Assembly (NCBI GenBank): GCA_020724555.1
Contig: DYGT01000006.1
Location: forward strand, 1,649-65,648
Reading direction: 5' to 3'
DNA length: 64,000 bases
Origin: Candidatus Microgenomatus sp.
Lineage (GTDB): Bacteria; Patescibacteriota; Microgenomatia; UBA8517
Shown: in pieces, positions 3,161-38,883 of the stretch
Layout: each line of letters opens with the position of its first letter
Position numbering within the stretch: position 1 is the stretch's first letter
Program-made: the position numbers and the translations under genes
The notes under the pieces: model-generated
Seen by the model: only the letters and a program-made list of their open reading frames with translations
Database searches by the model: none
Told to the model about the DNA's origin: nothing

Positions 3161-3486
3161 AAAAAGGACTGCATTACTACAGCTACACTGCCATTTCTTG
3201 CGTGTTGCTATCGTGCAGTCCGTCTATTGCGTTCGATTATGTCTGAAAACCTCTTGCAGGAAAAAAGAGGATTTGCCCTTGGCATTCCGAAGATCCTGCT
3301 GCATGCCCTTATTGCGAGTTGCTTTCGTGCGTTCTTGCTTTCCGAGTCCTATCGTTTGCGAATTTCAACTTAAGGCAGTTGTGCCTTAGTAGCTATATTT
3401 TTACAAAATTCCTATCTTCTTGTCAAGAGTTTCTTGATTAAAAATGTAGTAAGAAAGTCTCCAAATTGATACAATATAAGTATAAA

Positions 3487-3625
3487 GCCTAAACCCCTTC
3501 TGGGGCATGGCTAAGAAAACCCATCACAGGCGGTAAGCTCCTCGTCAGAGCACCTGTAATGGGTCATATCCCGAAAGGGGTATGGGTAGTCGAAAGGCTA
3601 TCGCTGGTGGGGAGCTTTTTGTTTG
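3487..3625 (+). ncRNA. Candidate structured ncRNA or cis-regulatory RNA of unknown family
   Basis: Non-coding, locally GC-richer segment in a divergent intergenic region. It contains an imperfect 11-bp stem (cccatcacagg / cctgtaatggg), two GNRA-type hairpins (cccgaaagggg, gtcgaaaggc) and a terminal G-run followed by a T-run (ggtggggagcttttt). Strand and family not determinable by eye. Confidence 0.2.
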
Positions 3626-5169: not shown

Positions 5170-6177
5170 TCACCTTGAGTAAAATTCCCTAACTGAAGCA
5201 GCTAAAACTCTTACATCTTGGTTGTCTAATCTGAAAAACGGTTTACCCAGTACACTTTCTGGAATACCCATTTTTCTAATAACATCCAGCGCCTGCGCTT
5301 GTGAGACTATCGTTCCACCCCTACTCCTGTCATGTTTGCTAAGAGTCGAAACATCTCTTGAGCCATTGTATTCGCCAAGCATTTGTCTAAGTTCTCTTTT
5401 GACATTTGACCTATCTCGTCTATGTGATTCTCGTTTAGATAAATCACCGCCTCCACCTCTCTGGCTGGCATCAACAAGTGCCTGTTTCATCTCATTCACA
5501 ACCAAACCAAATCTGCCTGTTCTTCTAAACAAATATGCAAATATATAGTCAGCGGGGTTGGCTTCGATTTCCCTCCTGTCCTTAGGGTCAAACTCCATCA
5601 CAATAGCATCTGTTCTCGGCTGCGGGTAAAAAGCTTCTCTGGACACTTGTGCTAAAACTCTTGAGTCAAAAAAAGTCTGACCCAGCAACGACAACTTCCC
5701 AAAGCCCATACTAGCCTCCGATTCCTGAAACTCTCTGGCGACATTATCTCCCAACATCAAGACAGCGCTGCTTATAGGTAAATCTATCAGCTTATACATA
5801 AAAGGTTCAGTAATATGGAAAGGTAAGTTTGCGACAATTTGAGCCTCCTCATCTCTACCAATCAAAGAACCAAACTGCACCCTCAAGGCGTCGCCAAATA
5901 TAAATCTGATTCTTGGGTTTTTTTCTTGAATACCCTCTAAAATAGGTTGAAATCTCTTGTCAATTTCTATCCCAATGACCGAACCAGCTCGTTGAGCAAG
6001 GGCTTCAGTTACATGTCCTATTCCAGAACCAACCTCAATGACTTTTGACCCTTCTATCACTGTAGCAACAAGCCTACCGATCACCCTTTCGTCAATCAAA
6101 AAATGCTGACCCAACCGTTCGCTAAGATCGATTCCTTCTGCCTCTAGTTGCGATGTAATAATTCTCTCTCTATTCAT
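5170..6177 (-). CDS. rRNA adenine N6,N6-dimethyltransferase family protein (KsgA/RsmA/Erm-type), paralogue 1, with an Arg/Ser-rich insertion
   Basis: GQHFLID SAM-binding motif, VIEVGSGIGHVTEAL, NLPFHITEP (motif IV NLPY-like), C-terminal helical domain ending MGIPESVLGKPFFRLDNQDVRVLAASV that resembles the KsgA C-terminus. ~50-aa low-complexity insert (RGGGGDLSKRESHRRDRS...). Confidence 0.8.
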   Translation of the reverse strand: MNRERIITSQLEAEGIDLSERLGQHFLIDERVIGRLVATVIEGSKVIEVGSGIGHVTEALAQRAGSVIGIEIDKRFQPILEGIQEKNPRIRFIFGDALRVQFGSLIGRDEEAQIVANLPFHITEPFMYKLIDLPISSAVLMLGDNVAREFQESEASMGFGKLSLLGQTFFDSRVLAQVSREAFYPQPRTDAIVMEFDPKDRREIEANPADYIFAYLFRRTGRFGLVVNEMKQALVDASQRGGGGDLSKRESHRRDRSNVKRELRQMLGEYNGSRDVSTLSKHDRSRGGTIVSQAQALDVIRKMGIPESVLGKPFFRLDNQDVRVLAASVREFYSR

Positions 6178-15793: not shown

Positions 15794-15951
15794 AGATAAA
15801 CAAGGAATGGCACTTGGCAAACAGGATGCCTAAAAATCCAACACTCGATCAGAGAGTCAAATGGCATGTTGAACACGCCAGAAATTGCTCTTGCCGTCCT
15901 CTTAGTGGAAAAATCTTGGAAGAGATTAAGAAACGAGGCATTAAAGTCTAA
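15790..15951 (+). CDS. Small conserved hypothetical protein
   Basis: MKINKEWHLANRMPKNPTLDQRVKWHVEHARNCSCRPL... reads like a conserved small-protein family; ATGA overlap with the preceding zinc-ribbon ORF. Confidence 0.4.
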   Translation: MKINKEWHLANRMPKNPTLDQRVKWHVEHARNCSCRPLSGKILEEIKKRGIKV

Positions 15952-16202
15952 GCCTGAATCTGTGCTATTGTAGGACTTTCAAAGGTTAGAGGTGGTGGCG
16001 TAGAGTGTATTATCCTCCCGCAATCGTCTCTCTGGGTTATTATTCTCACTTTTCTTTTGTTGGGAAGTATCAATCCAAACCTGAAGTCTAATGTTGTGGT
16101 TTGGTAAGTTCTATCCCAATCGAAAGTTTTGACATGAATGAAGTATATCAAAATTTGAACTAATTTCTTATTCTGCCTTTCGCCATTTTGTTTGACCTTC
16201 AT
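15948..16202 (-). CDS. Small hypothetical ORF, copy A of a locally repeated sequence
   Basis: 84 aa; paralogous to the ORF at 19431-19613 (YFIHVKTFD...ILPNKRKVRIITQRDDCGRIIHSTPP versus YFIHVKTYD...ILPNKRTVTIITKRDEYGRIIRSIPP). Confidence 0.35.
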   Translation of the reverse strand: MKVKQNGERQNKKLVQILIYFIHVKTFDWDRTYQTTTLDFRFGLILPNKRKVRIITQRDDCGRIIHSTPPPLTFESPTIAQIQA

Positions 16203-17539
16203 GATCGTATAATTTTACCCCCATCTGAGTTAATCTGTCTCTGACCTGATCAGCTTCTTCATAGCGTTTTGCTTTTCTCAAAGCATTTCTCTGCTCAATT
16301 AGTCGTTCGATTTCCCTTATATCATCAACCTCTTTGTGTTCAAACCTAAAAACGCCAAAAACTTTGTCAATTTTTCTAAAAAACTCTATTGCACTTTTCC
16401 CAGCCTCACCGTCAATATTTCTTGCCTTCAGATAATCATATATAAGAGACAAGGCTTGGGGGGGTGTTAAAGTCATTATCAAGAGCTGCTATTACACCTG
16501 CTTTTAACTCATCCACCAGTTCTTTCTCTTTAGCCGAGGCATACCCACTATCAAGTCTAAACATAAACTCATCAATTCTCTGCAATGCCTGCCTAGACTG
16601 TTCCAGGACATCTTCATCGTATGTCAATGTAGATCTATAATGACCACTAATAAACATAAATCTCAATACCCGCGGATCATTTGCTTTTAGTGCCTCTCTA
16701 ATAGTTACTATGTTTCCCAAACTCTTTGACATTTTCTCTTCTTTCATGTTCAAAAACCCAGCATGAAGCCAATATTTTACAAATGGGACTTTGCCAGAAA
16801 CGGCTTCCATCTGTGCTATCTCTGCCTCATGATGGGGAAACATTAAATCAACTGCTCCACCGTGAATATCGTACTGAGGCCCAAAGATAGTTTCTGTAAT
16901 TGCTGTATCCTCGATATGCCATCCCGGTCGACCGTTCCCTATATCAGTCTCCCAATAAGGCTCTCCTTCCTTTGCAAATTTCCACAAGCAAAAGTCATTA
17001 GGTCCACGTTTTTCAGGATCTTCATCAACTCGAGAAACACCGTCGGACGGTTTCACATCAGTCCGCCCCGAGAGCTTGCCATAATCAGCGAATCTAGCAA
17101 TTTCAAAATAAATTCCACCTGAAGTTCGGTAGGCATAACCTTATTCTTGGAGTCTCTTTACTTGATCAACGATTTGAGGTATAAAGTCTGTTGCATTAGC
17201 ATATTCAGTTACAGCATCATTCCCAAGTGCCCGCATATCATCTATGAATATGTCTCGATACTTATCGGCTAATTCACGCCAAGAAGTTCCTCTTTCGCGA
17301 GAGCGATTTATAATCTTATCATCAATATCAGTTATATTTTGTAAGTAGTGTACATCATAACCTCGATACCTTAGATATTTAACAATAAAATCAAATTGGG
17401 TAAATGTCTTTGCGTTGCCGATGTGTGCGTAATCATACACAGTAGGACCGCAGACAAACATTTTTACTTCTCTATCGTCGCCAATCGGCTCAAAACTCTC
17501 AGTGCTTCTGGATAGAGTGTTGAAAATTTCAATACTCAT
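16168..17539 (-). pseudogene. cysS: Degenerate second copy of cysteine--tRNA ligase (cysS), disrupted
   Basis: Three consecutive minus-strand ORFs carry the CysRS N-terminus (CGPTVYDYAHIGNAKT), core (HIEDTAITE..., KMSKSLGN) and C-terminal anticodon-binding region. Fragment 1 ends with an in-frame TAA where the intact copy at 37453-38883 has Lys (LQE*GYAY versus LEEKGFTY). Fragments 2 and 3 are offset by a frameshift in a G7 run (16448-16454). Confidence 0.8.
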
Positions 17540-17640
17540 TTTAATACTTTATTGAGCAATTTTATCATGTCAAGCGCCCCTTTTAAGACAATTGTATATA
17601 CTGATATAATTATGAAGAGTAAGAAGGAGGTGATAAATAA

Positions 17641-17889
17641 ATGAGAGAAAGGACACTAGATATTAACCCTTTTGCAACAAAATTTGCGGAACCAATTGCG
17701 GATGAAGATATACTCGACGCTACTGGTTATTATGACGAAGAAACACAAACATGGATACTAGAAAACGATGGTTCTGATTCATCAGTGTTAATGTCTGGTT
17801 TAAACCCCGAACGTCCCCCTACAACTTGTCAAAGAATGACCAAAGTAGGAGATAAGCATTGGACAAGTGACACTTATGTAGATGATTAA
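17641..17889 (+). CDS. Putative graspetide (microviridin-like) RiPP precursor peptide
   Basis: 82 aa with strong SD (aaggaggtgataaataa-ATG). Leader contains INPFATKFAEP resembling the microviridin PFFARFL recognition motif. C-terminal region is rich in Thr/Ser plus Asp/Glu with aromatic residues (TGYYDEETQTW; TKVGDKHWTSDTYVDD, compare microviridin core TxKYPSDWEE[YW]). An MdnC-like ATP-grasp ligase sits two genes away. Confidence 0.55.
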   Translation: MRERTLDINPFATKFAEPIADEDILDATGYYDEETQTWILENDGSDSSVLMSGLNPERPPTTCQRMTKVGDKHWTSDTYVDD

Positions 17890-17898
17890 GGATATCCC

Positions 17899-18423
17899 AT
17901 GGGCAAAAGTATAGGTTTCTTTCGAAAAAATAAAGACTCGAATAAAGAGTTAGTAGTTTTGTTTGAGAAAATTCAAGAGATCAGAGCAAAAAGTTCTGAT
18001 CGGGACTGGGAAAATAATAATTTTGTCCAAGAACTAGAAGTTTTAGAGGGAAGAGTTCGTCGAAAAACATTAAAACTCCTAGAGAGAAAAAAACTAAAAA
18101 CCGCTGATGATTTTTATAGAGCATCATTTATCTTCCACCATGGTAAGGATTATAAGTCATATTCAATAGCAACGGCTCTTGCTGCCATTAGTCATCATTT
18201 GGGAGACCCATGGGGAAAAAATTTATATGCTGTTGCTTTGGATAGACTATTATTAAGCATCGGTCTACCGCAACAATTTGGTACTCAATACGTTAAAAAG
18301 GGAGGTAAATATCAACTTGCTCCCTTTAATAAATCCACCACAGACAAAGAAAGAAAGAAATATCTTGTTGAACCACTGAGAAAACTAAAAACAAGAGAAA
18401 AAGAACTAAATAAAAAAAATTAA
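17899..18423 (+). CDS. Hypothetical protein (lysine-rich C-terminus), between precursor and ligase
   Basis: 174-aa ORF 10 nt downstream of the precursor; no recognised motif. Confidence 0.45.
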   Translation: MGKSIGFFRKNKDSNKELVVLFEKIQEIRAKSSDRDWENNNFVQELEVLEGRVRRKTLKLLERKKLKTADDFYRASFIFHHGKDYKSYSIATALAAISHHLGDPWGKNLYAVALDRLLLSIGLPQQFGTQYVKKGGKYQLAPFNKSTTDKERKKYLVEPLRKLKTREKELNKKN

Positions 18424-19438
18424 TATCTATTACCTTTCAGAAGATCAACTATTTCATTGGAGATTGGAAGACCGGTCAAATCCTCTACCCAACCCCACTG
18501 ACCATTAGGATTAATTTCCAGAAAGATGTATCTTTGATCAGGGGTCAATATCATATCTATAGCCCCAAAGTTAAGCCCTAGCCTACGAACAAGGTTAATG
18601 ATTTTCTGCTCAATCTCACCAGGAAGTACGTGTACTCTGTGCACTAAATTTAAGGTATCTCTTCTCCAATCAACTTTAGCTTTGTCACTCTCTTGTGAGT
18701 GAATCTCAACTGAGAAAACCTTGTCACCAACAACTGTAATTCTTAATTCAATATCTTTCGGTACATATTCTTGAAAAAGCGCTGGTGTATATTTGACTCT
18801 TTCAATATCTACAATATCATTTTCAGAGACCAAACTTGTATAAATGGCAGAACCCTGACTTTCATCTAAAACTATTCCGCCTCCGAGTCGCTTAATAATC
18901 ACTCCTTTTGACTTGGCGGTTTTTCTGAAAAATCTATCTGCATCCTCAGGGTTATTTGTTATTAAGGTTTTCGGTATCTCAAGACCAACTTCGCTAGCAA
19001 CTCTAAGCTGTCTTATTTTTAACTCTGCCACCCGATTCTGCTCAGGATGATTAACCCAAACACAATCTAATAATTGCCACAACCCCATAATCGTGGCTCT
19101 ACTTTCTTGTTCTGCAAAAACATGAATTGCCGGAGAAAACTCGGGTGGAAATTGAAAATCTGCAGGGCGTCGATACCAAACGCCGGTAACTTGATTACCA
19201 CGAATTTGCCTACCCCGAGGAAATCTTAGGATCTGCTCTCTTTCATCCCCATTAAACAAGAGAGAGAGACAGAAACTTTTAGAGGAAAATCCTCTGTATT
19301 AAATCTAACAAAAGGAATTCTTTCTTCATTCAACTTTTTAGCAATAATATCCACATGCGGATCCAGTTTCCGACTAACTATCAAAATTTGAGGACTTTCC
19401 TCCCGAAGATTCTCTTTGTTAAACTCTCTCTCAATCAT
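18420..19438 (-). CDS. Microviridin/graspetide-type ATP-grasp ligase (MdnC/MvdD-like), interrupted by a frameshift in an (AG)5 run
   Basis: Two overlapping ORFs (19226-19438 and 18420-19259) align colinearly to MdnC-type ligases: ILIVSRKLDPHVDIIAKKLNEERIPFVRFNTEDFPLKV (cf. LIVTFSRDNESIPLVIKAIEAMGKKAFRFDTDRFPTEV), VTGVWYRR, ELRITVVGDKVFSVEIHSQESDKAKVDWRR, FGAIDMILTPDQRYIFLEINPNGQW. The frame switch falls inside (AG)5 at 19259-19268. Confidence 0.8.
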
Positions 19439-19613
19439 ATTTTCGAATTATACAGAAAATTTGTCCAGCTAAAGCTGTTTCAAAGATCATCTCTGGTGGA
19501 ATTGACCTGATAATCCTACCGTATTCGTCCCTCTTAGTGATAATTGTGACTGTTCTTTTGTTAGGAAGTATAAATTCAAAATCGTAAGTTTTGACATGAA
19601 TAAAGTATAGCAA
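19431..19613 (-). CDS. Small hypothetical ORF, copy B of the repeat
   Basis: 60 aa; paralogous to 15948-16202; the underlying DNA (about 19470-19610) is ~80 percent identical to 15975-16175. Confidence 0.35.
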   Translation of the reverse strand: MLYFIHVKTYDFEFILPNKRTVTIITKRDEYGRIIRSIPPEMIFETALAGQIFCIIRKYD

Positions 19614-19637
19614 AATTTGTCCTGATGTCCCGATGAG

Positions 19638-20147
19638 TTATGAAGTTATATGCTGTTTTGCTAACTTGATAGCATCCCTAAATATCGCCTCACCTGTTTT
19701 TCCCCACTTAACATAATTTGTTACTTCAGAGGCGGGTACAAACTTTCTCTCCCAAGTACTGTCGTTAGCGGGATCAGGAGTTTGAGGGTTAAGCTTTTTA
19801 AGTTTAGCAACACATCTAACTTGATAAATTGCTTTATCAGGATCATTATCTGGAAATATAACCTTTTGTACTCCTAAGGGCTTAATGCCCTCTACCTCAA
19901 CATCAACCTCTTCCAAAAGCTCTCTTTTCAGAGTATCTTCAATGGATTCCCCCTCTTCAGGATGTCCACCAGGAATAATCCAACTACCTTCTTTTGATTC
20001 TCTACACACCAATATCTCACCATTATCATTAAAGACAATTCCATAAACTTGGGTGATTGGGGAGTAATTTTTAATATCATCAGTTTTAATCCAAGTATTT
20101 GTCACTTTAGTACCTTTGTATAGATATATGTCCTGAGGGTATTTCAT
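19638..20147 (-). CDS. NUDIX hydrolase
   Basis: Nudix box GGHPEEGESIEDTLKRELLEEVDV (GX5EX7REUXEEXGU). Confidence 0.85.
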   Translation of the reverse strand: MKYPQDIYLYKGTKVTNTWIKTDDIKNYSPITQVYGIVFNDNGEILVCRESKEGSWIIPGGHPEEGESIEDTLKRELLEEVDVEVEGIKPLGVQKVIFPDNDPDKAIYQVRCVAKLKKLNPQTPDPANDSTWERKFVPASEVTNYVKWGKTGEAIFRDAIKLAKQHITS

Positions 20148-20890
20148 TTTAATAAAAACTTGAGAATAAAATCTGTGTAAAGCTTTTGAGCAAGTCTTTT
20201 ATCTTTCCCATTTATTTTTGAGAAATTATGGTTTGCTCCTTCGACAGTAACTTTTTCCTTTTTGGCATTTTTATATCCGTCAAACAATTTATTTTGCGCT
20301 TCAAATGGCACCACATCGTCTTTGCTTCCTTGAAGAAAAAGTAGTTTTCCTTTATATGCTTTCACTGAATTAAGAACTGCACTTTCAGAAGGACAAGTAG
20401 AAAGAATAGGTTTAGTAGAGTCTCCATATCCCGTGCCCGTTCCAGCCAAAACCAATTTATCAATATACTTAAATTTATCCTTTAAGGTAGAAACTACTGT
20501 TCCCCCTATTGAACTGGCAACTATGTAAAGTCTTATCTCTTCCTTCTCAACTCCGAATAAAAACTTACTTTGATCAAGTACTAAATCTACGGCATCAGCC
20601 AGATCTTGAGCTTCTTGGGCAAAGGTCTTGCCGCTAAAAGACTCTTGTTGTTTTGCAAAATCGCCGTCAGTTGGAAAAATATTCCAGTCTCTAGATGAAG
20701 AAAAATGCACAACGTTTGCAATATTCTTCTCCAAAACCTTGTTGCCCAAAAATTTAGACTTTGACCCCCTGTCGCCCGTCATTGCATACAGCCCGTGGAC
20801 GTTTAGCAAAACCTTATTTGTTTTTTTCTTTGCTTTGAAAACATCAAGCTTGATGAGGGACTTGTAATTGCCTTTAAGAAACACCTCCAT
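20144..20890 (-). CDS. Alpha/beta-hydrolase fold protein (dienelactone-hydrolase/esterase-like)
   Basis: GxSxG-type nucleophile elbow in LYIVASSIGGTV, followed by Asp and His at the expected distances. Confidence 0.7.
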   Translation of the reverse strand: MEVFLKGNYKSLIKLDVFKAKKKTNKVLLNVHGLYAMTGDRGSKSKFLGNKVLEKNIANVVHFSSSRDWNIFPTDGDFAKQQESFSGKTFAQEAQDLADAVDLVLDQSKFLFGVEKEEIRLYIVASSIGGTVVSTLKDKFKYIDKLVLAGTGTGYGDSTKPILSTCPSESAVLNSVKAYKGKLLFLQGSKDDVVPFEAQNKLFDGYKNAKKEKVTVEGANHNFSKINGKDKRLAQKLYTDFILKFLLK

Positions 20891-37452: not shown

Positions 37453-38883
37453 TTACGCCACGGGCTTTAACTGAAAACCATCCTGACCGTCAATTATTTC
37501 CCAGCCCATTTGCTGCAATTGAATCCTTATTTCATCTGCTTTGCCAAAATTATTCTCTCTTCTAAACGTTTCCCTCTTTTGTGCCAAATCAATTACTTTT
37601 TGGGGTATTTTTACTTCTTCTATATTTATGTTTCTCATATTAAGGCCAAAGACTTCGTCAAATAGATATAATAAGTCCAACTTATCTTCCGAGGGAATGT
37701 TGCTTTTTACCATGTCCCACATTATTGCCAATGCCTGTGGCATATTAAGATCGTTATTAACAGCCTTTAAAAATTCACTTCTATATCCATCTACTTTTTC
37801 CAACTTATCCTGGGATAATTGCTTTCGTTCACTTGCTGATGGATTTTTAAGATCAAGCACAATTGAACGCAAACGCTCAAGCGACTTTTCTGAAGCCGCG
37901 AGCGCTTCCCAGGTAAAATTTAAAGGTTTTCGGTAATGGCCGGTTAAATAAAAATAGCGCAAACTCAAATACCCAAACCCCTTTTCAGCTACATCCCAAA
38001 GTGTATACGCATTTCCCAAACTTTTACCCATCCTTCCCCCATCCACAGTTAAAAAGGCGCCGTGCACCCAATATTTTACAAAAGGTTTTTTACCGGTGGC
38101 TGCTTCGGATTGGGCAATTTCATTTGGGTGGTGAGTGCTTCTCAGGTCTTCCCCTCCCACATGAACATCAAACTGATCACCCAAGTACTTGGTACTCATG
38201 GCAGAGCACTCAATATGCCAACCCGGAAACCCTACACCCCAAGGGCTTTCCCATTCCATTTGTCTTTTAGTGTCAGTGGGGGAAAACTTCCATAAAGCAA
38301 AATCTCGAGGATCCTTTTTTTCAGGATTAGATTCAACCCTTACCCCTTCCTTAATTTGGTCTAACTCTGACAATTGCCCATATTTAAAACCTTTAGCTTC
38401 ATAAGCTTGAGTGTCAAAATAAATAGCATCTTGAGTTTTATAGGTAAAACCTTTTTCTTCGAGTTTTTGAATCATACTTATTTGTTCAGCGATATGGTTA
38501 GTAGCTTTGGGAATTATATTGGGACGAATAAGATTTAATTTTTCCAGTCCTTCCATAAAATCACTCGCATAAAAGTCTGCTATCTCCCAAGCAGATTTGT
38601 TTTCGCGTTTGGCTGCTTTTTCCATCCTGTCCTGTCCTTGATCTGCATCTCCTTCGTTGTCTCCGGTAAGATGTCCTACGTCCGTAATATTCATTACATA
38701 AGTCACATCGTAGCCGTTTAGCTTCATTGTTCTGAGTAAAAAATCGCCAAGCGTATACGTGCGCCAGTTGCCGATACTCACATAGTCATAAACCGTAGGG
38801 CCGCATGTATACATGCCGACTTTGGGCGGATTTAAGGGCTTAAATTCTTCAATTTTTTTGCTAAGCGAATTATATAACTTCAT
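37453..38883 (-). CDS. cysS: Cysteine--tRNA ligase (intact copy)
   Basis: 476 aa; HIGH-region CGPTVYDYVSIGNWRT, zinc Cys, KMSKS (GRMGKSLGN), C-terminal anticodon-binding domain. Confidence 0.9.
   Translation of the reverse strand: MKLYNSLSKKIEEFKPLNPPKVGMYTCGPTVYDYVSIGNWRTYTLGDFLLRTMKLNGYDVTYVMNITDVGHLTGDNEGDADQGQDRMEKAAKRENKSAWEIADFYASDFMEGLEKLNLIRPNIIPKATNHIAEQISMIQKLEEKGFTYKTQDAIYFDTQAYEAKGFKYGQLSELDQIKEGVRVESNPEKKDPRDFALWKFSPTDTKRQMEWESPWGVGFPGWHIECSAMSTKYLGDQFDVHVGGEDLRSTHHPNEIAQSEAATGKKPFVKYWVHGAFLTVDGGRMGKSLGNAYTLWDVAEKGFGYLSLRYFYLTGHYRKPLNFTWEALAASEKSLERLRSIVLDLKNPSASERKQLSQDKLEKVDGYRSEFLKAVNNDLNMPQALAIMWDMVKSNIPSEDKLDLLYLFDEVFGLNMRNINIEEVKIPQKVIDLAQKRETFRRENNFGKADEIRIQLQQMGWEIIDGQDGFQLKPVA

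Follow-up and report, generated by a model that had tools for sequence, protein, structure and literature searches.

A probable three-gene graspetide cassette, most likely inactivated recently by a 2-nt insertion in its ATP-grasp ligase gene, in Candidatus Microgenomatus

The locus described here lies in a stretch of 64,000 nucleotides from Candidatus Microgenomatus sp. (GenBank assembly GCA_020724555.1, contig DYGT01000006.1, positions 1,649 to 65,648), hereafter the window, to whose positions all coordinates refer. The window has 39% GC and its genes are strongly strand-biased. Between 17.6 and 19.4 kb, reading of the open reading frames (ORFs) indicated three genes, not two: a predicted precursor gene for a graspetide, i.e., an omega-ester/amide peptide that is made by the ribosome and modified after translation (RiPP), a DUF6624-like gene, and an ATP-grasp ligase gene split into two ORFs. 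These two ORFs, of 70 and 279 aa, overlap each other in different frames, while the stops of the 174-aa DUF6624-like gene and of the minus-strand ligase gene, which are convergent, overlap by 4 nt. An earlier note on this DNA had described the precursor as converging on the ligase; the convergence stands, yet the two are not adjacent, since the conserved 174-aa gene, which went unmentioned, intervenes. The sequence features and peptide strings quoted in that note were all found where it had placed them, including the strong Shine-Dalgarno sequence before the 82-aa ORF and the string INPFATKFAEP (residues 8-18). The features of the cassette are listed below, dN/dS being the ratio of non-synonymous to synonymous substitution rates.

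17583..17610, + strand: putative promoter-like TTAAGA-16-TGnTATAAT upstream of the precursor gene (consensus scan, 10/12 matches, extended -10 TG)
17624..17634, + strand: Shine-Dalgarno sequence AAGGAGGTGAT, read from the sequence, 6 nt 5' of the precursor ATG
17641..17889, + strand: predicted graspetide precursor gene, 82 aa (ORF; 14 family members; dN/dS 0.05-0.09)
17668..17685, + strand: putative leader motif PFATKF, residues 10-15 (family consensus xPFAxQFMEP; published Phhx(1,2)h)
17725..17754, + strand: putative second conserved leader element GYYDEETQTW, residues 29-38 (G29, Y31, Q36 and W38 invariant)
17821..17886, + strand: predicted core TTCQRMTKVGDKHWTSDTYVDD, residues 61-82 (invariant Thr as candidate donors and Asp as candidate acceptors; the ring connectivity is a prediction)
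17899..18423, + strand: divergent DUF6624-like helical-repeat gene, 174 aa, starting 9 nt past the precursor stop
18420..19259, - strand: 3' fragment of the ATP-grasp ligase gene, 279 aa, with an internal TTG start (rest of the pre-ATP-grasp domain and the ATP-grasp domain)
19226..19438, - strand: 5' fragment of the ATP-grasp ligase gene, 70 aa (first 59 residues the authentic N-terminus, then 11 out-of-frame)
19259..19268, no strand assigned: (AG)5 on the + strand, (TC)5 in the ligase gene, reading AGAGAGAGAG; site of the 2-nt insertion

Removal of 2 nt (one AG) restores a single ligase ORF of 338 aa, rather than the ~339 aa first estimated. This repaired ligase carries PF21068 (MvdD pre-ATP-grasp; 61.2 bits, residues 18-134, Pfam cut-off 27) followed by PF08443 (RimK-type ATP-grasp; 33.1 bits, residues 140-332, Pfam cut-off 21). 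It is matched end to end by the NCBIfam model TIGR04187, "ATP-grasp ribosomal peptide maturase" (9e-87, below that model's cut-off), and by the NCBIfam MvdC/MvdD models at about 2e-75, as against 3e-13 for rimK_fam. Its best relative in the PDB is MdnB (5ig8; 1.6e-56), accompanied by AMdnB, CdnC and MdnC (7e-52), while RimK reaches 7e-6. It also keeps 56/56 invariant columns in a 30-sequence family alignment, and aligns end to end with intact homologues at 87% identity. As the TIGR04187 and MdnB scores far exceed those of RimK, the domains match and the invariant columns are kept, the ligase, judged by its domains and similarity, is a graspetide (MvdD/MdnC-like) synthetase and not a RimK/GshB-type enzyme. 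This agrees with the MdnC/MvdD-like ATP-grasp identity proposed in the earlier note, and the grouping with RimK/GshB enzymes that would have spoken against it is disfavoured by the similarity scores. By contrast, the label of microviridin should be abandoned. The repaired ligase lies well under the equivalog cut-offs (254.2 bits vs 425 for TIGR04185, and 254 bits vs 475 for TIGR04184, the MvdC/MvdD models), there is a single ligase, and no TxKxPSDx(D/E)(D/E) core is present; as far as can be judged from sequence, the cassette is not a microviridin system, nor is the ligase a microviridin equivalog.

The putative precursor belongs to a family of 14 homologues, found, wherever the context was available, in the same position relative to the ligase and beside the same ATP-grasp and DUF6624-like genes, and its pairwise dN/dS (0.05-0.09) indicates strong purifying selection, so that the conservation of the small ORF at homologous loci, proposed as a test, was indeed found. 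Three conserved parts stand out in the family alignment: the N-terminal xPFAxQFMEP, then ILDA(S/T)GxYDExxQxWxL, and a C-terminus of the form (L/F)NPERPP-TTC-xx-M-TKVG-xxxxx-(S/T)-D-xx-V-DD. In the first of these, P10-F-A-T-K-F15 fits the Phhx(1,2)h leader motif as defined by Makarova et al. (PMC8939145), a fit conserved in 12/14 family members. Taken loosely, Phhx(1,2)h is present in 17% of the small ORFs of the window, while PF[FA]x[RK]F within the first 30 aa occurs in just one of 278, and the 82-aa ORF is the only one to pair that motif with a D/E- and S/T-rich tail. The PFFARFL-like leader announced in the earlier note was recovered in a generalised form: PFATKF has the P, the F and the terminal F in common with PFFARFL, but is not PFFARFL itself.

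The same note had counted TGYYDEETQTW among the core-like stretches. A profile comparison (hhalign) with the small ORF located upstream of the ligase in Ca. Woesebacteria GW2011_GWB1_39_12 aligned PFAxxF together with GHYDExxQ (E 1.9e-4), this ORF reading ..VPFAALFADF..EGHYDEVVQ..TKSATRCGTKEFNIIDD... Because it is shared with the precursor of another CPR (Candidate Phyla Radiation) ligase, GYYDEETQTW is probably a second leader element rather than part of the core. The predicted core would thus be confined to the last 22 residues, with the invariant C-terminal TTCxxMTKVG...D...DD. T61, T62, C63, T67, V69, G70, D77, D81 and D82 are invariant, K68 is found in at least 90% of members, and an invariant PERPP directly precedes this predicted core. 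The observed spacing, T62-x4-T67-x9-D77-x3-D81-D82, differs from TxKxPSDx(D/E)(D/E), and TTCQRMTKVGDKHWTSDTYVDD is devoid of KxPSD. Nor does it follow the branch-1 signature of CPR graspetides, TxxxTx(6-10)Dx(1-4)D (PMC8939145): the second half fits, and the Thr-Thr gap is one residue longer.

The 174-aa protein is encoded in every complete homologous cassette, its stop always overlapping that of the ligase, and its gene evolves under dN/dS of 0.06-0.10. Weak DUF6624 matches were obtained over the same region in 18/25 members of its family, and the family profile retrieved 2183 representatives among 1.84 billion proteins, some of which exceed the DUF6624 cut-off (36.8, 29.4 and 27.8 bits). The profile also weakly detected ligase-adjacent proteins in other Patescibacteria loci (L036, L064 and L074). 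Homology to DUF6624 is thus likely on the basis of sequence profiles, formal Pfam membership being withheld by a score under the cut-off. The AlphaFold2 model is confident (predicted local distance difference test score, pLDDT, 91.9) and consists of a helical, TPR-like repeat with a small beta element after it. A Foldseek search against the PDB gave nothing below E 0.9 and found no catalytic fold, and neither a signal peptide nor a lipobox was found in this protein. A defined site for binding or catalysis is suggested by the polar residues that the family conserves (D70, D71, R74, H80/81, H100, K107, N108, Y110, D115, R116 and R152). In line with this, "cluster 23", an uncharacterised protein with conserved His/Arg, was reported in all CPR branch 1-2 loci (Makarova 2022, PMC8939145), and DUF6624 in 82% of the group-42 biosynthetic gene clusters (BGCs), whose representative comes from Ca. 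Komeilibacteria (Carter 2026, PMC13097080). The 174-aa protein matches both descriptions. Our best guess is that it would be a peptide-binding partner, or else a processing factor other than a classical protease. The "minimal single-ligase" system of the earlier note is consequently correct as to the one ATP-grasp enzyme, but not as a two-gene system, since this third gene is strictly conserved. As stated there, no GNAT or ABC-transporter partner was found, either in the cassette or among conserved neighbours.

The trio of ligase, DUF6624-like gene and small ORF, with overlapping convergent stops, was recovered in L001-L008, L012, L019-L021 and L099 (our designations for homologous loci). It behaves as a cassette because the flanking genes differ between these loci, and dN/dS is 0.05-0.10 across all three genes. 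Among named genomes, the nearest is that of Ca. Woesebacteria Ch104a, a complete chromosome of 802 kb (CP055308.1; ligase identity 87%). Ligases more than 65% identical occur in only three GTDB species representatives, and the next tier, at 40-45% identity, belongs to other CPR lineages: Woesebacteria, Saccharibacteria, Vogelbacteria and Uhrbacteria. This tier includes Woesebacteria GW2011_GWB1_39_12 (L023), a listed member of Makarova's branch 1, whose ligase is 43% identical.

The ligase ORF is not intact in this genome. An insertion of 2 nt (TC) at codon 60, within the N-terminal pre-ATP-grasp domain, splits it in the (TC)5 run, i.e., at the (AG)5 where the break had already been placed in the earlier note. 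The repaired junction KVSVSLLFNGDE aligns gap-free with KVSVSLLFDKDE of the intact homologue P0001 (87% identity). The (AG)5 and the split ORFs were the same in a contig of the JGI metagenome 3300029893 and in Logan assemblies of SRR5011273, SRR5011275, SRR6488484 and SRR6488487 (0-1 mismatches over 3-8.5 kb), some of these runs being possibly the same reads that JGI assembled; the Logan sequence of SRR8731049 matches up to the end of its contig, inside the tract. No (AG)4 allele was found among the assemblies spanning the tract. In a collection of 15 billion proteins, the exact repaired protein was absent, while both the 70-aa and 279-aa fragments were present, from NCBI, JGI, Logan and GEM; as the fragments, and never the repaired protein, recur across these sources, an assembly artefact is unlikely. 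The site is non-repetitive in orthologues (TCTGTTTCTCTTTTG), which read GTT TCT GTT TCT CTT TTG TTT; the window lineage would hence have started from (TC)4 at most, present by chance, before acquiring one more unit. The best reading of the frameshift is a recent, fixed, inactivating slippage mutation. The choice between phase variation and assembly indel offered in the earlier note is not sustained, given an indel reproducible across assemblies, no length variant and no conserved tract.

Decay of the cassette is supported by the state of the neighbouring cysteinyl-tRNA synthetase (CysRS) gene and by independent lesions in sister lineages. The features concerned are the following.

16168..17539, - strand: CysRS paralogue, pseudogene (in-frame TAA at 17141-17143; +1 G in a G7/C7 run at ~16452-16458)
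37453-38883, - strand: second CysRS gene, intact, 476 aa, 20 kb away (~33% identical to the broken copy over the N-terminal 145 aa compared)
16118..16157, no strand assigned: left copy of a 40-nt direct repeat, ychF promoter/start-like (self-BLAST)
19580..19619, no strand assigned: right copy of the 40-nt direct repeat, 92.5% identical to the left, just upstream of the ligase gene
15948-16202 and 19431-19613, - strand: repeat-associated small ORFs, a paralogous pair

In strain L017 (SRR8731049), 99.8% identical over 3.15 kb, the positions of these CysRS lesions read CAA and G6 and the protein is intact at 456 aa. The lesions of the window, which include a C-to-T nonsense mutation, are reproduced in L015 and L100. 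The broken CysRS is dispensable because an intact second CysRS is present. Seven differences separate the window from L017 in this block, of which 3/7 inactivate a gene. The pair of 40-nt repeats brackets the block formed by the CysRS pseudogene and the cassette, and beyond each copy the similarity continues in diverged form for ~110 nt, which correspond to the paralogous 60- and 84-aa ORFs (50% identical). In L017, the ychF gene itself abuts CysRS at the left boundary, aligned with the left repeat copy. These ychF-like repeats and the arrangements in L017 and L001 suggest a past rearrangement or integration at ychF. Logan contigs also break at the AG run (L017 end, 19263) and at the left repeat boundary (L015 start, 16111), which is compatible with structural variants co-existing in those samples.

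Among sister lineages, L007, L008, L012 and L013 (four samples) share a CAG-to-TAG change in the ligase, an ATG-to-ATA change at the precursor start and a read-through extension of the DUF6624-like gene; L099 combines a scrambled ligase N-terminus with the same ATA precursor start, and L009-L011 carry a premature stop in the ligase homologue. In L001-L004 and L019, which include the complete Ch104a genome, the ligase is kept and the precursor begins MEPI.., its PFAxxF part having been replaced by a 5' fragment of ychF, which abuts the truncated precursor in L001. Fully intact trios were found in L005/L006 (GCA_040961635.1) and L021. The low dN/dS across lineages implies that the lesions are recent relative to lineage divergence. 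The L009-L011 contigs (26, 40 and 12 kb, from no fewer than three independent assemblies) all stop less than ~100 nt past the truncated ATP-grasp gene, at ~5780-5900, which suggests a repeat or a strain-variable junction at that point. An alternative genetic code was considered for the in-frame stops and rejected: the 99.8%-identical strain has CAA at the position of the CysRS TAA, the TAG of the L007 ligase replaces a conserved CAG/Q, and the 476-aa CysRS, among others, reads through under table 11. Stop reassignment is in any case irrelevant to the ligase break of the window, which is a frameshift and not a stop.

Single-ligase graspetide clusters of this kind have been predicted in CPR genomes, where ATP-grasp branches 1 and 2 associate a Phhx(1,2)h leader with a cluster 23 protein (Makarova 2022, PMC8939145). 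The present cassette shares with such DUF6624/cluster 23 BGCs the CPR host, a single MvdD-like ATP-grasp enzyme, a protein probably of the DUF6624 family in which His, Arg and Asp are conserved, a Phhx(1,2)h leader, a Thr...Asp-rich C-terminal core and the lack of both transporter and GNAT; with the branch-1 locus L023, it further shares a ligase 43% identical and a small ORF with a similar PFAxxF...GHYDE leader. It differs from this group by a distinct precursor family (82 aa, TxxxxT-x9-D-x3-DD vs the published TxxxTx(6-10)Dx(1-4)D), by a DUF6624-like protein below the Pfam cut-off, without signal peptide or lipobox, and by the frameshifted ligase. Graspetides in small CPR genomes have been published (PMC8939145, PMC13097080), which removes the unusual character that the earlier note attached to such a system in a small genome. 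The architecture made of a CPR host, a single MvdD-like ligase, a DUF6624/cluster 23 protein and a Phhx(1,2)h precursor is indeed already published on bioinformatic grounds (PMC8939145; PMC13097080). What appears new here is the precursor family, the bipartite leader and the pattern of repeated independent inactivation. In the accessible part of the text of the supplements to PMC8939145 and PMC13097080, the precursor signatures PERPPTTC and KVGDKH were absent, which is not proof of novelty, and no paper joining "graspetide" and "Patescibacteria" was found.

Two better-known types of system help to situate the cassette. Microviridin systems comprise the precursor MdnA, the ligases MdnB/MdnC or MvdC/MvdD, the GNAT MdnD and the ABC transporter MdnE. 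They provide the closest ligases of solved structure (1e-52 to 1e-56), with the same domain architecture; PFATKF resembles PFFARFL, and the possible donors and acceptors of the core come in an order (T, K, S, D, D, D) reminiscent of T-x-K-x-P-S-D-x-E-E. They differ by the score of the present ligase (254 bits vs 425/475 cut-offs), by two ligases where one is found here, by the GNAT and ABC transporter, by the core spacing and KYPSD, both unlike the present core, by the leader, which is ~60 aa here, and by their cyanobacterial or Bacteroidota hosts vs a CPR host. Partner-dependent graspetides of the rosaritide MirC type (Carter et al. 2026) are alike in that a small non-ligase protein strictly co-occurs with the synthetase, a co-occurrence which suggests an obligate partner. 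The MirC partner is PPIase-like, whereas the accessory protein here is DUF6624-like, of a TPR-type helical kind, and the formation of a complex is hypothetical.

Taken together, the locus is quite probably a three-gene CPR graspetide cassette, recently inactivated by a genuine 2-nt insertion in its ligase gene. From a mechanistic point of view, characterised MdnB/MdnC-type enzymes suggest how an intact cassette may operate. The 82-aa precursor would be made from a small plus-strand operon together with the DUF6624-like helical-repeat protein, which would act as an obligate accessory to maturation. The convergently transcribed ligase would recognise the leader via PFATKF, and probably also via the downstream GxYDExxQxW, and would use ATP to activate the side chains of D77, D81 and D82 of the core as acyl phosphates. 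The hydroxyls of T61/T62, T67 and S/T75-76, and possibly Lys68, would then capture these acyl phosphates to give side-chain macrolactone/macrolactam rings. A microviridin-like nested topology (T67-D77, S76-D81 and K68-D82, with T61/T62 as alternative donors) is possible as pure conjecture. In the present genome, the ligase is most probably not made, and the cassette would be a relic in a block with a decaying CysRS gene.

Several observations weigh against this interpretation. The 174-aa protein matched DUF6624 directly at E 0.11 only (12.4 bits, Pfam cut-off 27), hence its placement in DUF6624 is transitive. Neither a GG nor any other recognisable site for cleavage was found in the precursor, and no peptidase or exporter in the cassette. 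The search with precursor models advised in the earlier note gave no match to the 82-aa ORF in Pfam or NCBIfam. High conservation is not limited to leader motif and core but covers the whole sequence, an unusual trait for a RiPP leader, and the complete Ch104a genome keeps an intact ligase beside a precursor without PFAxxF, so that this motif may be non-essential, or the Ch104a locus may be dying too. These last three points, along with the many CPR branch-2 loci in which Makarova et al. (PMC8939145) found no precursor, are also what could be expected if the 82-aa ORF were not the ligase substrate but an unrelated conserved protein, such as a partner of the DUF6624-like protein, the true precursor being elsewhere or absent. 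We regard this as distinctly improbable, as the small ORF strictly accompanies the ligase in all homologous loci, however their surroundings change, and carries Phhx(1,2)h at the expected position and an invariant Thr/Asp-rich C-terminus. Its leader also looks like the one in the small ORF that lies upstream of a different graspetide ligase from Woesebacteria.

The frameshift itself admits other explanations. Slipped-strand phase variation, whereby (AG)n would switch the ligase and peptide maturation on and off and the assemblies would show the OFF state, could account for a lesion of exactly one unit of a dinucleotide run in a ligase gene otherwise undamaged, with every invariant residue kept. 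A further point against inactivation comes from the near-identical, intact-CysRS strain L017, whose contig stops within the AG run, perhaps at a branch of the graph; as a sign of AG-length polymorphism this end is ambiguous, since it falls at 19263 and an (AG)4/(AG)5 branch would be expected at ~19267. Phase variation nevertheless seems decidedly unlikely: all six tract-spanning assemblies are (AG)5 and none (AG)4, the 15-billion-protein collection lacks the exact in-frame protein, the tract is short, with its 5 units, and not conserved (relatives have TCTGTTTCTCTTTTG), so that no evolved switch exists in the family, and the neighbouring gene bears ordinary pseudogene lesions. A lone 2-nt indel in an otherwise perfect gene also resembles an error, all the more with a CysRS homopolymer indel on the same contig, and the true genome could then be (AG)4 with an intact 338-aa ligase. 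Such a sequencing or assembly artefact is very unlikely in view of the agreement between the JGI assembly and Logan assemblies of at least 4 runs, read sharing with JGI being possible; moreover, the CysRS C-to-T nonsense change is not of the indel type, and the lesions recur in L015 and L100 while the L017 sample is intact. The ligase could finally still be made by -1/+2 ribosomal frameshifting, by transcriptional slippage or as two interacting fragments, leaving the cassette functional: the frame is restored by a -1 shift at any point from the run to the TAA at 19226-19228, and the precursor and DUF6624-like genes are intact with good predicted expression signals. We hold this to be extremely improbable. 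No X XXY YYZ slippery heptamer occurs in the 33-nt ORF overlap, which led us to reject a programmed -1 frameshift, and no Shine-Dalgarno sequence precedes the internal TTG of the 279-aa ORF; intact homologues need no recoding, the break lies within a strand of the N-terminal pre-ATP-grasp domain (aligned to MdnB), and decay is favoured by the nonsense and truncation lesions that sister lineages carry independently. A bolder proposal keeps the graspetide cassette and reads its history otherwise: the DUF6624-like protein would be a mechanistically new obligate partner, and the repeated knock-outs (the 2-nt slip here, TAG plus start-codon loss, N-terminal scramble, premature stop and leader deletion) would reflect selection against a costly or host-harmful peptide, or on/off switching in populations, rather than neutral decay. 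We consider it unlikely.

Beyond the cassette, directly upstream of the ligase gene and on its strand, are genes for a NUDIX hydrolase and an alpha/beta-hydrolase (Hydrolase_4/S33-like), at 19638-20890 (-). They were rejected as cassette members, and are probably unrelated to it, since every homologous locus has other neighbours. In two related lineages, the cassette adjoins a conserved trio (L001 8179-10258; L007 1-1677) composed of a 57-aa ORF, a 90-aa protein (weak nSTAND_NTPase4 match; of the size of a RiPP recognition element, RRE/PqqD-like) and a 536-aa protein (faint asparagine-synthase match). This trio looks like a lasso-peptide-type RiPP cluster, and it was absent from the window by tblastn. 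Elsewhere in the window, at 3486-3602 (+), there is a full-length match to the Rfam LOOT RNA motif (RF03000; 81.9 bits vs a gathering score of 46.4), an orphan structured RNA.

The window's own copy of the cassette is most probably dead and, in this genome, represents an ordinary decaying gene cluster. The interest lies in the clade to which it belongs. CPR graspetide clusters have been predicted twice (2022, 2026), none has been characterised chemically, and it had earlier been suggested that the strictly co-occurring DUF6624/cluster 23 protein could be a biosynthetic enzyme yet to be discovered. In this clade, such clusters come in a very compact three-gene version, without exporter or protease, with a defined invariant core, intact orthologues (GCA_040961635.1) and natural broken alleles. 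The clade is thus well suited to probing the role of DUF6624 and that of such peptides in episymbiotic bacteria.

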